Of a stretch of 9,638 bases of DNA, positions 6,406 through 9,638 are shown one piece after another. Origin of the DNA: a virus (lineage: Duplodnaviria > Heunggongvirae > Uroviricota > Caudoviricetes); the IMG/VR virus record IMGVR_UViG_2537561977_000015, positions 1-9,638 of that record; one strand, written 5' to 3'. The translations under genes were made by a program, and so were the position numbers. Below the pieces are notes generated by a model. It ran no database searches. It saw only the letters and a list, made by a program, of their open reading frames with translations, and was not told the origin of the DNA. Numbering within the stretch: position 1 is the first letter of the stretch; each line of letters starts with the position of its first letter.

Positions 6406-6852
6406 ATGGCGGCAGAGTACATCAGGGACTGGCAACAACCGCGCCACGCAGTGGGGCGTGAAGGAACGGGGATCCCCGCTCCTGAATCCGCGCTTTCCTC
6501 CTGGCTGGATGCCTACCGGGCAGAGAACGAGCGCCGCCAGGAAATGGCTGATGCGGCGTTCTCCGCCACGACGCTGGGCAACCTGATTAATAAAAGCCTG
6601 GATGCACAGGAAAAACAGGACAAAACCATCACACTGGCAGGAGACGCCAGAAAACAGGCACGCGGCGCGGTGGATGAAGCCATGGCCTCGCTGCGCCTGC
6701 TGCCGTCCTATCTGCGCGATCCGCTTATTCGCCGCCTCTCTTTCCTGCGCAAAAACAGGAAGCCGATCGTCAGAAAGGCAAAAAGAGCCGACAGCAGAAC
6801 GCTATGCACGCGGAACCCTGCGCAAAATATTCGAACGTCTGGACCGCACTGA
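6406..6852 (+). CDS. Probable N-terminal part of the gene-A-like replication initiator, in a different frame from the main ORF (frame disruption near 6780)
   Basis: Protein-like translation from 6406 to about 6790, with a degenerate tail after that. The overlapping frame of 6602..9226 becomes protein-like only from about 6790. An A5 run sits at the junction (6780..6784). Confidence 0.45.
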   Translation: MAAEYIRDWQQPRHAVGREGTGIPAPESALSSWLDAYRAENERRQEMADAAFSATTLGNLINKSLDAQEKQDKTITLAGDARKQARGAVDEAMASLRLLPSYLRDPLIRRLSFLRKNRKPIVRKAKRADSRTLCTRNPAQNIRTSGPH

Positions 6853-9226
6853 CAGACACTGGCTGACACCGGGTTATCGCTCCCTTGCCGGACGTGAACG
6901 CCTGGATGATTTGCTTTACCTGCCACAGCTCAACAAGCACCAGATACAGACGCTGGCCACCATGACAGCGGCGATGTTCAGCAGCACCTTCGAAACACTC
7001 TGTGATGGCTTTGGTGCCAGAGATGGCGAGCTGACCATGGAGGTGGCGCTGAAGGCATATCAGATGCTGGCACGCATGGCGTTACATCTGCACACCATGC
7101 CGCCGCATTATGACGCACTGACAACAGACAAGGACCGGAGGAACGCACCGGATACGGAACTGCTGCCGGGCGCAATTCTTCGCCTGACCTGTGCGGAATG
7201 GTGGAAACGCAAACTGTGGCTGTTACGTTGCGAGTGGAGAGAAGAACAACTCCGCGCCGCCTGTCTGGTTTCCAGAAAAACATCACCCTATCTGAGCCAG
7301 GACGCGTTAAGCGCGTTTCGCGCACAGCGCGAGAAAACACGCGATTTCCTGAAAAGTTTCATGCTGGAAAATGAAGACGGGTTCACGATTGATCTCGAGA
7401 CGGTGTATTACGCGGGAGTAAGTAACCCGGTTCACCGTAAGGCAGAAATGATGGCCACCATGAAGGGACTGGAACTTCTGGCCGAAGCCCGTGGCGACAG
7501 AGCGGTGTTTCTGACTGTCACCTGCCCGTCAAAATACCACGCAACAACGGAGAACGGTCATCCGAACCCCAAATGGAACGGGGCCACCATGCGCGACTCC
7601 AGCGATTACCTGGTTAACACGTTTTTTGCGGCGGTCCGCAAAAAACTGAACCGCGACGGTCTGCGCTGGTATGGCATCCGCACGGTGGAGCCTCACCATG
7701 ACGGCACTGTGCACTGGCATATGATGGTCTTTGCACATCCGGACGAGATTGAAACCATCGTGTCCCACGTCTGCGATATTGCCATTCAGGAAGACCGCCA
7801 CGAGCTGGGCGATGACATAACTCCGCGTTTTAAGGCGGAGTACGTAGACGGCTCAAAAGGCACACCAACCAGCTACATCGCCACCTACATCGGAAAGAAC
7901 CTGGACAGCCGCGCCGTGGATGGCATCGACCCGAAAACGGGCAAGCCACGCGTTGACCACGAAACCGGAAAATCAATGGCCGAGAGCGTGGAACGCGCCA
8001 TCGGCTGGGCGCGCCTTCACCGGGTCCGCCAGTTCCAGTTCTTTGGTATCCCCTCCCGTCAGGTGTGGCGTGAACTGCGCCGCCTTGCCAGCCAGATGGC
8101 ACGCAACCCGGAAGGCCCGCAACGGCTGAAGGATGACGCAATGGACGCGGTACTCGCTGCCGCTGATGCCGGATGTTTTGCCACCTACATTGAGAAACAG
8201 GGTGGCGTACTTGTTCCACGCAAAGACTACCTGATTCGCACCGCCTACGACCTCGCAGATGAGCTGAACGATTACGGTGAACAGAGCGTACAGATTTACG
8301 GGATCTGGTCGCCGCTCATTGGGGAGTCTTCCCGCGTATGCACGCATCCGGATAACTGGAAGCTGGTAAGACGCAAACCGGAAGCGGAAGACAGCGCCCG
8401 CGAAAATGGTTTTGACCTTCAGGGCGGCCCTGCCGCCCCTTGGACTCGTGGCAATAACTGTCCCCGTGTACAGGAAACGAACAACAACGGGACAGAACAG
8501 CCGGAAGAACGGCCAGCACCGTGGCCGCAGCTCCCTGACGGCGTTGAAGTGAACGAATGGATGCGCTCACTGAAACGGCACGAACGCCGGGCGCTGATGC
8601 GTTCGCTTCGTGACAAACAGGCAAAAAACAGCAGTGATGAAATGCAGAACTGGACGCAGAGCCGCAAACAGCCGCGACCTTTGCCTGATAACCACGAATT
8701 ACTCGCTAAAGAATGGCGGGAGTCTGCTGAATCTCTCGGCATGCATATCGGTGAACAACAGATGCAGCACTTGTTACGGGGCGGCAGTCTGTACGTTGAC
8801 GGCAGCATCATTGCACCGCAGGGATTTAAAATTGTACGCAAACCGGATACCCGCCCGGACAGCCGAATCACGCAACTCTGGCAACGCCTGAGCCGTAATC
8901 ACGGCGTAAGCAGCACGGAGATCCGTCATAACCCTGTCGCCAGCTATCTGGAACAGCTGGGGACATCAGACCCCGAAGCAGCCGCACGCCTGGCATCCAT
9001 ACTTCAGCAGGACCAGAACACCATGAAAACACCCGTTACCGTGCTTTCTGACATGCTGCGCGCCATCCGCGACGCAGAGCACGCACAGAGAATCAGTGAA
9101 ACCACTGAACGCGCCCGCCGCAAAGCAGACCTGCTGCGGGGTGGCCTGACCAGTGGAAACAAAAAACAGACAGAAACGGGACTCACGAATCCCGTAAATG
9201 AGCAAAAAACGCGCAGCGATATATGA
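6602..9226 (+). CDS. Rolling-circle replication initiator, P2 gene A-like HUH replication endonuclease (coordinates are those of the longest ORF; true 5' end uncertain)
   Basis: HUH metal-binding motif (TVHWHMMVF, nt 7712..7720 encode H-W-H) followed about 50 residues later by the paired catalytic tyrosines (TSYIATYIGKN, Tyr codons at 7874 and 7886). This is the signature arrangement of phiX174/P2 gpA-type Rep proteins. Other segments (LTVTCPSKYH, GIRTVEPHHDGT) resemble P2 gpA as I recall it. The first 180 nt of this frame look non-coding. Confidence 0.85.
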   Translation: MHRKNRTKPSHWQETPENRHAARWMKPWPRCACCRPICAIRLFAASLSCAKTGSRSSERQKEPTAERYARGTLRKIFERLDRTDRHWLTPGYRSLAGRERLDDLLYLPQLNKHQIQTLATMTAAMFSSTFETLCDGFGARDGELTMEVALKAYQMLARMALHLHTMPPHYDALTTDKDRRNAPDTELLPGAILRLTCAEWWKRKLWLLRCEWREEQLRAACLVSRKTSPYLSQDALSAFRAQREKTRDFLKSFMLENEDGFTIDLETVYYAGVSNPVHRKAEMMATMKGLELLAEARGDRAVFLTVTCPSKYHATTENGHPNPKWNGATMRDSSDYLVNTFFAAVRKKLNRDGLRWYGIRTVEPHHDGTVHWHMMVFAHPDEIETIVSHVCDIAIQEDRHELGDDITPRFKAEYVDGSKGTPTSYIATYIGKNLDSRAVDGIDPKTGKPRVDHETGKSMAESVERAIGWARLHRVRQFQFFGIPSRQVWRELRRLASQMARNPEGPQRLKDDAMDAVLAAADAGCFATYIEKQGGVLVPRKDYLIRTAYDLADELNDYGEQSVQIYGIWSPLIGESSRVCTHPDNWKLVRRKPEAEDSARENGFDLQGGPAAPWTRGNNCPRVQETNNNGTEQPEERPAPWPQLPDGVEVNEWMRSLKRHERRALMRSLRDKQAKNSSDEMQNWTQSRKQPRPLPDNHELLAKEWRESAESLGMHIGEQQMQHLLRGGSLYVDGSIIAPQGFKIVRKPDTRPDSRITQLWQRLSRNHGVSSTEIRHNPVASYLEQLGTSDPEAAARLASILQQDQNTMKTPVTVLSDMLRAIRDAEHAQRISETTERARRKADLLRGGLTSGNKKQTETGLTNPVNEQKTRSDI

Positions 9227-9270
9227 AGCGCGCACAAAACAGGCAAAAACGGGATTTCAGAATCCCGTAA
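9163..9270. repeat. Two copies of a 35-bp direct repeat (9163..9197 and 9236..9270, 29/35 identical), each containing the inverted repeat ACGGGA...TCCCGT
   Basis: Read directly from the sequence. Copy 1 lies inside the last 20 codons of the replication gene, copy 2 in the gap before the ParM-like gene. The stems are conserved while the loops differ at 4 positions. Confidence 0.6.
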
Positions 9271-9302
9271 TCGATTAATTAATCAACATAAGGAAAAGCG
9301 AC

Positions 9303-9638
9303 ATGAAAATTTGTATCGACGACGGCTCCACCAACATCAAGCTGGCATGGACTGAGAACGGCGAACGCCGCAACGCCATCAGCCCGAACAGCTTCAAGTC
9401 GGAATGGTCTGCGCCGTTCGGTGGCATGCAGCCCGCGAACTACATGCTTGATGGCGTGCGCTATGGTTTTGATCCGGTCAGCGATCGCTTTGTCCAGACA
9501 ACCGACACGCAATACCAATACAGCGATGTAAATGTCATTGCCATTCATCACGCGCTGGTCAAATCAGGCATCACGCCACAGGAGGTGGATGTGGTTGTCA
9601 CCCTGCCACTGAGCGAGTATTTCGACACAAACGCACAG
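9303..9638 (+). CDS. parM: ParM/StbA-family actin-like segregation ATPase, N-terminal 112 codons (truncated by window end)
   Basis: AAGGA SD 9 nt upstream of the ATG. The N-terminus MKICIDDGSTNIKLAW...ISPNSFK...YSDVNVIAIHHAL...VDVVVTLPLSEY closely matches the phosphate-1 motif and N-terminal region of plasmid R1 ParM (MLVFIDDGSTNIKLQW...ISPNSFK...YSDVNVVAVHHAL...) as I recall it. Confidence 0.75.
   Translation, partial: MKICIDDGSTNIKLAWTENGERRNAISPNSFKSEWSAPFGGMQPANYMLDGVRYGFDPVSDRFVQTTDTQYQYSDVNVIAIHHALVKSGITPQEVDVVVTLPLSEYFDTNAQ

Follow-up and report, generated by a model that had tools for sequence, protein, structure and literature searches.

A known actin-type partition system is ParMRC of plasmid R1 (parA/stb in R1/NR1). 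Its parC site comprises ten direct iterons flanking a promoter; the N-terminus of R1 ParR reads DNA as a ribbon-helix-helix, while the C-terminal tail docks into ParM.

Actin-type partition genes also occur on elements that are normally integrated. SrpMRC of the SXT/R391 ICEs is expressed only on activation, alongside the mobility/replication programme; it binds repeats upstream of srpM and lowers the loss of the excised element (PMC4489591). AlpAC/alpS of the Corynebacterium glutamicum prophage CGP3 is an early-induced system whose target is phage DNA in circular form (PMC4446434, PMC5539076). AlpAC binds sites in its own promoter region and ties circular phage DNA to filaments, and efficient replication needs it (PMC4446434). 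By analogy, SrpMRC and CGP3 AlpAC would be the closest analogues of the parMR genes of P88-like phages analyzed here.

The gene itself has a literature. RefSeq uses the name 'plasmid segregation protein ParM' in the P88 record and among the E. coli genome records listed, and in the genome record of D6 a similarity with 'phage P88 StbA' is noted. Pfeifer et al. 2021 placed P88 among candidate phage-plasmids, though it was found integrated (PMC7969092). Because the RefSeq annotation, that survey and Rousset 2022 (PMC9122126) between them report both the gene and the idea that it may mark a plasmid, the finding and its main interpretation are already known, and as a product of genome scanning parM offers nothing beyond annotation pipelines and the two published surveys. 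What the present analysis adds is the assignment of the module to the phage backbone rather than to cargo, a two-palindrome centromere candidate and a genome census that weighs against the plasmid reading. Among the papers found, none is a functional study of the P88-like parMR module.

The DNA that we analyzed (the window, 9,638 nucleotides) ends within the gene in question. An ATG-initiated frame starts at 9303 and stays open up to the final base, giving 112 codons:

Positions 9303 to 9638, plus strand: the first 112 of about 319 codons of parM/stbA, which encodes an actin-fold segregation ATPase; the window end truncates the gene.
Positions 9290 to 9294, plus strand: Shine-Dalgarno-like AAGGA, 8 nt 5' of the parM ATG, read from the sequence.

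An AAGGA or AAGGG box stands at the equivalent place in the Plesiomonas and Hafnia relatives. The translated fragment matched Pfam PF06406 StbA_N, the ParM N-terminal domain, over model positions 1-112 of 158 (E 1.8e-57; 194.2 bits, against a cut-off of 24.6 bits) and PHROG 691 'partition protein' (E 2.3e-30). It shares 57% identity with the R1 ParM N-terminus, agrees with phage P88 ParM at 111 of 112 residues (one difference) and contains the phosphate-1 motif D6-D7-G8-S9-T10-x-x-K13 (DDGSTNIK). A search of NCBIfam profiles returned sub-threshold matches only and gives the product no name. Family membership is nevertheless established by the other matches, and an earlier interpretation of the window (hereafter the sequence-only reading), which had called a ParM-like actin-type ATPase starting at 9303, was correct to the exact coordinate. 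It had also put the gene immediately downstream of the replication gene, and that wording is right because only 76 bp separate the parM ORF from the stop (9226) of the ORF matching Phage_GPA.

That upstream ORF is the end of a longer, apparently frameshifted gene:

Positions 6406 to 9226, plus strand: replication gene A (P2 GPA family), 427 bits against Phage_GPA; interrupted by two 1-bp deletions.

Relative to P88 and the O104:H4 prophage, one deletion falls in the A-run at 6751-6755 and the other between 6793 and 6794, and repair of both yields a 940-aa ORF. The first deletion was absent from all 52 relatives that hold the segment. The breaks reflect either a replication-defective prophage or sequencing errors; if the frameshift is real, the window copy could not replicate, and its par module would therefore be idle.

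A terminator scan revealed no plus-strand terminator between gene A and parM in the window or in P88, and a crude consensus search revealed no consensus sigma-70 promoter there in either of them; scans of the relatives for promoters and terminators gave nothing convincing. Gene A is thus the probable co-transcription partner of parM. A ParR-regulated promoter active in lysogens may also be compatible with so crude a promoter scan.

The complete gene could be followed in relatives. P88 parM encodes 319 aa with StbA_N (PF06406, 275 bits) and the ParM C-terminal domain (PF21523, 230 bits), and this full-length homolog aligned end to end with the crystal-structure sequence of R1 ParM, 1mwk (E 9e-93 over 315 residues). 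The sequence-only reading had proposed to run the full protein against ParM/StbA profiles; in this relative the ParM profiles match, and the protein is not known to have a non-partition role. The phosphate-1 motif, E147, the phosphate-2 motif (D169-x-GGTT-x-D176) and the adenosine motif G279-GGA were invariant in an alignment of eight diverse sequences that took in phage, plasmid and phage-plasmid homologs. In the window copy E147, phosphate-2 and GGGA are predicted, since their positions fall past the window end.

Four bases past the parM stop of P88 there begins a 103-aa ORF that matches PF10784 Plasmid_stab_B (StbB/ParR) at 86 bits. A gene of this family lies directly 3' of parM, outside the window, in every full-length relative checked, so the ParR-like adaptor that the sequence-only reading had suggested looking for was there each time and the ParR partner is established. 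Two examples are:

Locus L001, positions 9820-10131: parR.
Locus L002, positions 13668-13982: parR.

An N-terminal strand, RRISFYLKP, and a C-terminal RxNxxxLFP tail are common to these proteins and to the ParRs of an IncL/M plasmid and of phage-plasmid D6. A search of the ParR sequence against solved structures gave no meaningful match. ParR is highly polymorphic, with 43 alleles in 85 loci, and its two main families differ through the helix region and the linker; the first 14 residues and the terminal FPE tail are fixed across alleles, and the neighboring ParM is nearly invariant.

Over its last kilobase the window shares 96-98% identity with Escherichia phage P88 and with other Xuanwuvirus (Peduoviridae) genomes. 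Among 85 P88-like loci, parM was in place and full-length (319 aa) in 84, with a mean pairwise dN/dS of about 0.05, indicative of purifying selection. The pair parM-parR follows GPA and precedes variable genes and the portal/terminase genes also in Plesiomonas, Hafnia, Serratia (with two species sampled), Enterobacter and an E. coli variant at 93% identity. We reached these diverged relatives through a protein database; a search of genome contigs returned three near-identical loci, and viral contigs returned P88-like ones only. In a neighbor-joining tree of 107 ParM sequences, built without bootstrap, the phage-borne copies formed one 16-leaf clade that leaves out the plasmid, ICE-like and D6 homologs.

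The interval from parR to the portal gene behaves differently: among the P88-like loci it varies in content and measures from 1.0 to more than 2.4 kb. Examples of its variable cargo are given by the following loci:

L079, parR to portal gene.
L020, parR to portal gene.
L015, parR to portal gene.
L086, parR to portal gene.

In this interval, 3 loci encode an AbiLi/AbiLii-like ATPase with an OLD-type TOPRIM partner, 18 encode an Ead/Ea22-like protein and 8 a ClpX zinc-finger protein; the equivalent place has HicAB in Serratia and a KAP NTPase in Enterobacter. Because genes vary there while parMR stays invariant, the true variable hotspot starts after parR. On this comparative evidence, parMR is best described as a vertically inherited backbone element, the conserved left flank of the hotspot and not its cargo. 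The sequence-only reading had the hotspot position opening with parM. This stood in that the gpA-gpQ interval is a published hotspot (Rousset et al. 2022, PMC9122126), and it failed in that parM itself, by its presence, its low dN/dS and its single clade, belongs to the backbone.

The same observations bear on the idea that the module serves defense or exclusion, as hotspot cargo that protects the lysogen or destabilizes rival plasmids or phages with related centromeres. Its location within a known defense hotspot (PMC9122126) speaks for this idea, as does the nearby cargo with the AbiL-like pair, HicAB and the KAP NTPase. However, a PADLOC scan of the window fragment, full-length ParM and ParR gave zero matches, neither the presence nor the position of parMR changes, in contrast to the variable genes 3' of it, the phage ParMs form a single, vertically inherited clade, and no promoter of its own was detected for parM. 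We consider such a role highly improbable, and the suggestion in the sequence-only reading that parM might be the first gene of an uncharacterized multi-gene (defense) system finds no backing in the PADLOC result.

Some ParM homologs lie outside phages. Chromosomal homologs at about 50% identity were considered as further phage copies and ruled out, their contexts being an integrated plasmid or an ICE. In a Dickeya chromosome, a ParM-StbB pair at this level of identity sits in an ICE-like region (integrase, TraG_N, TraU); in a Mangrovibacter chromosome, another such pair, again about 50% identical, sits in an integrated plasmid-like region (Rep3, ParA/ParB, UmuDC-like). Both pairs are further type II partition genes on integrated elements. 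A 226-kb contig labelled as the Gram-positive Vagococcus sp. (NZ_JBQPOM010000071.1) carries a 98%-identical copy of the phage ParM, which is probably due to assembly contamination or mislabelling.

A repeat search of the DNA preceding parM returned two copies of a 38-nt direct repeat (an A-rich arm plus a palindrome), each of which terminates in a 20-bp palindrome of the form ACGGGAyT-N4-AATCCCGT:

Positions 9160 to 9197, unstranded: 38-nt direct repeat, copy 1.
Positions 9233 to 9270, unstranded: 38-nt direct repeat, copy 2, 82% identical to copy 1 and 73 bp downstream of it.
Positions 9176 to 9195, unstranded: distal palindrome ACGGGACT-CACG-AATCCCGT, core at -125; candidate ParR site, half 1.
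Positions 9249 to 9268, unstranded: proximal palindrome ACGGGATT-TCAG-AATCCCGT, whose GGG-N10-CCC core is located at -52 relative to the parM start codon; candidate ParR site, half 2 of a centromere/operator.

The distal palindrome lies in the final codons of gene A, at a distance of 73 bp from its proximal counterpart. Over the full 34.5 kb of a P88-like genome, these are the sole two matches to the palindrome (0.26 expected by chance), and there is none elsewhere in the window (0.14 expected). Four lineages share two GGG-N10-CCC palindromes, 72-73 bp apart, at about -128 and about -55 from the parM ATG, even where ParM has diverged so far that the Plesiomonas and Hafnia proteins are only 62-63% identical; for the proximal palindrome, one of like type is found at the equivalent position in the P0003, Plesiomonas and Hafnia loci. 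The CAGGCAAAAACGGGA part of the 38-nt repeat is also kept upstream of Serratia phage parM. Conservation of the cis-repeats is established by these comparisons. In Hafnia and Enterobacter, extra genes lie between gene A and parM and the repeats are still directly 5' of parM; because they stay with parM where other genes intervene, they are part of the par module rather than of gene A.

A second group (Serratia, Enterobacter and a metagenome contig) has instead an inverted pair, ATAGAAAAA / TTTTTCTnT, at -110 and -70, whose core is present as tandem iterons in the parC of the IncL/M plasmid. The ParR strand TRR[I/V]SFYL goes with the palindromes, whereas NRKISFYL or NRKCSFYI goes with the ATAGAAAAA/TTTTTCTnT repeats. 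This co-variation between ParR strand and site, across just two clades, supports recognition of the candidate sites by ParR. In the P88 group itself, no co-variation was seen between the family of the ParR allele and the variant of the palindrome, and since the alleles fail to track the variants there is no signal of fine-scale co-evolution.

We therefore regard the phased palindromes at 9176-9195 and 9249-9268 as a candidate centromere of just two sites. The sequence-only reading had pointed to centromere iterons as something to look for; conserved phased repeats do precede parM, but they amount to two palindromes only, and these resemble minus-strand terminators as well. An RNA fold of the junction between gene A and parM was uninformative, the palindromes pairing with each other, and an Rfam scan of 8800-9638 returned no family.

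The resemblance raises the alternative that the 38-nt repeats act in minus-strand termination, or as hairpins in mRNA, and form no centromere, the real parC lying elsewhere or being absent. In an intrinsic-terminator scan both window repeats indeed fit a minus-strand stem-loop with a T-run, and the Serratia relatives too have minus-strand terminator-like hairpins 5' of parM. On the other hand, the Plesiomonas palindromes, at the same positions and with 72-bp spacing, were not flagged as terminator-like. A C-to-T change in about one fifth of the P88-like loci would put an A-C mismatch in the minus-strand stem, with no compensatory changes seen there, yet the GGGAyT/AATCC core is invariant; moreover, no minus-strand gene terminates at the repeats. 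We consider the terminator explanation unlikely.

Between the proximal palindrome and the ribosome-binding site, within 9270-9289, the window has an AT-rich box, ATTAAT(T/C)AA(T/A)CAA, which is kept in the P88, Plesiomonas and Hafnia lineages though the other non-coding sequence has diverged. One possibility is that this box acts as the -10 region, of non-consensus type, of a promoter under ParR control.

Is the phage that carries this module integrated or episomal? The stretch at the parM end of the window was found in 1373 of 5426 complete E. coli genomes (about a quarter), and its places in these genomes were chromosomal in 1533 cases and on a plasmid in 2. The window codes for a tyrosine integrase, for a Cox-like protein and for further early proteins of P2 type; in a Pfam scan of the ten largest window ORFs the sole replication protein was GPA, and no plasmid-type initiator was present among them. 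P88 was induced by mitomycin C from a chromosomal prophage with attL and attR (PMC5285337), and the PhiSM lysogen is, in a published report, likewise integrated. The integrated state is established by these data.

Searching PLSDB, we obtained six near-identical copies. Five of them lie within replicons of 228 kb to 1.4 Mb that carry the phage. The sixth (NZ_CP148288.1, from E. coli Z1323PEC0009) is a circular record of 34,461 bp corresponding to a whole P88-like genome, integrase included. We built a 1.3-kb probe across the int-attP junction of this circle. Among the 442 E. coli genomes that match the probe, and so have the same integrase type, none contained the intact attP junction, and all 442 matches break at probe position 702, which is the point of linearization of the 34,461-bp record. 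Because the start of the record coincides with the att break point, the data suggest that this circle, an ambiguous case in itself, represents a prophage that had been excised, or looped out in the assembly graph, and not a plasmid. Overall, the census argues against stable plasmid maintenance as the normal state and is compatible with a transient or host-dependent episomal phase. A stable form of the episomal (phage-plasmid) lifestyle that the sequence-only reading had entertained is not supported by these counts.

A facultative version of that lifestyle would have the phage persist as a low-copy plasmid prophage over many generations, for instance in hosts with no free attB, with ParMRC as its partition system. 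The partition module is complete and under purifying selection, one circular record does hold a whole P88-like genome, and a plasmid lifestyle has been suggested in print (Rousset 2022, PMC9122126; Pfeifer 2021, PMC7969092); moreover, KS14, a P2-like phage of Burkholderia, has been proven to be a plasmid prophage (PMC3091744). Set against these points are the chromosomal predominance of the element, the linearization of the one circle exactly at the att break point, the large replicons that account for the remaining PLSDB matches, the integrated P88 and PhiSM lysogens, and a window whose tyrosine integrase is accompanied for replication only by the GPA rolling-circle initiator. KS14, by contrast, has RepB and ParA and no gene A (PMC3091744). 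We judge the facultative phage-plasmid to be rather unlikely.

P88-like genomes also carry a Hok/Gef (MokW-like) toxin gene near ogr (34928-35068 in P88, 1291-1431 in NZ_CP148288.1). We considered this gene as evidence of a plasmid lifestyle and rejected it: related copies (about 84% identity) are widespread in Stx-converting lambdoid phages, and since these integrate, the gene is uninformative on lifestyle and counts against a plasmid reading built on it.

The reading that we favor, with moderate confidence, is that the ORF opens a type II (ParMRC-like) segregation module in the backbone of P88-like (Xuanwuvirus and related) temperate phages of the P2 family, and that this module partitions or positions transient circular phage DNA. 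Among the options listed in the sequence-only reading, a partition module is the one that the relatives bear out, with a true ParM heading the module, ParR 3' of it and phased repeats 5'.

A plausible mechanism would be as follows. ParR/StbB, encoded just past the window, would bind the two phased palindromes as a ribbon-helix-helix protein, and its conserved C-terminal tail would catch ATP-ParM filaments, whose growth would drive copies of the circular phage genome apart. Since the prophage is normally integrated, the module would presumably be active only while the phage DNA is extrachromosomal, that is, after infection and before integration, or after induction and excision, as gene A makes circles. 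In the interval between A and parM neither a plus-strand terminator nor a consensus promoter was found, and for this reason we infer that parMR would be transcribed by read-through, as the distal part of the early replication operon, and would be silent in the repressed lysogen. The payoff might be that both daughter cells inherit the element, that the replicating genomes are spatially organized, or both.

A related possibility is that the module is purely an organizer of the lytic cycle, in which ParM filaments position or disperse replicating circles for replication and packaging, much as AlpAC does, with no role in inheritance. This overlaps the favored reading, and the payoff is the sole difference. 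It would fit that parM directly follows gene A with no terminator between them, and that P2-type replication yields monomeric circles, which are the packaging substrate. R1-type ParMRC, however, acts on pairs of low-copy plasmids and not on tens of copies. The precedent is AlpAC, which links circular phage DNA to filaments with efficient replication as the outcome (PMC4446434). We hold a purely lytic function to be distinctly unlikely.

Going beyond the segregation module that we favor, one may speculate that a P2-family prophage, carried by one in four E. coli strains, relies on an R1-type actin segrosome whose minimal centromere has two palindromes, either to persist through a prolonged episomal carrier phase, as part of a dual integrative/episomal lifestyle, or as a cytoskeletal organizer of rolling-circle phage replication. 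This is a tentative proposal, which we think is more apt to be wrong than right by a good measure. If true, however, the carrier-phase or replication-organizer function would, for an integrating tailed coliphage, be the first ParMRC role to be demonstrated. In any case the gene is both common in E. coli and strongly conserved in an integrating phage. Explaining why such a phage keeps a plasmid segregation machine would refine the boundary between prophages, ICEs and plasmids, and understanding the module would also supply a compact, well-behaved ParMRC variant for study.

How, then, does the locus compare with the known systems? The nearest relatives are ParM and ParR (gp17/gp18) of P88 and their counterparts in other Xuanwuvirus genomes: these are the same genes, at about 97% DNA identity and in the same position after gene A. 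The window differs from P88 in that its parM is cut by the window end and its gene A has two 1-bp deletions.

With R1/NR1 ParMRC (StbA, StbB, parC) the module shares the Pfam families of both proteins, the order (candidate) cis-site, parM, parR, and all of the ATPase motifs; the C-terminal tail of ParR is also kept relative to plasmid ParRs. Phage ParM is, however, only about 50-57% identical to R1 ParM, the candidate centromere consists of two phased palindromes in place of the many direct iterons flanking a promoter, and the carrier is an integrating phage with a rolling-circle initiator rather than a theta-replicating low-copy plasmid. D6 is a plasmid prophage; its StbA-type ParM is 48% identical to the phage protein, and the ParR encoded after it has this C-terminal motif as well.

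KS14 combines a P2-type virion module with a plasmid lifestyle (PMC3091744), and it relies on ParA partition and RepB with no gene A, whereas the P88-like lineage encodes gene A along with a tyrosine integrase and is found integrated. AlpAC differs in its Gram-positive host, its gene order (alpA-alpC) and its published phenotype, which is replication efficiency and not segregation. The likeness to SrpMRC lies in an actin-type partition system on a normally integrated element, and SrpMRC is thought to matter for the transient excised circle only. SrpM, though, is no more than a distant relative of R1 ParM, and a ParR domain is not recognizable in SrpR (PMC4489591), whereas both proteins of the P88-like module are close R1-type homologs and the element that carries them is a phage, not an ICE.
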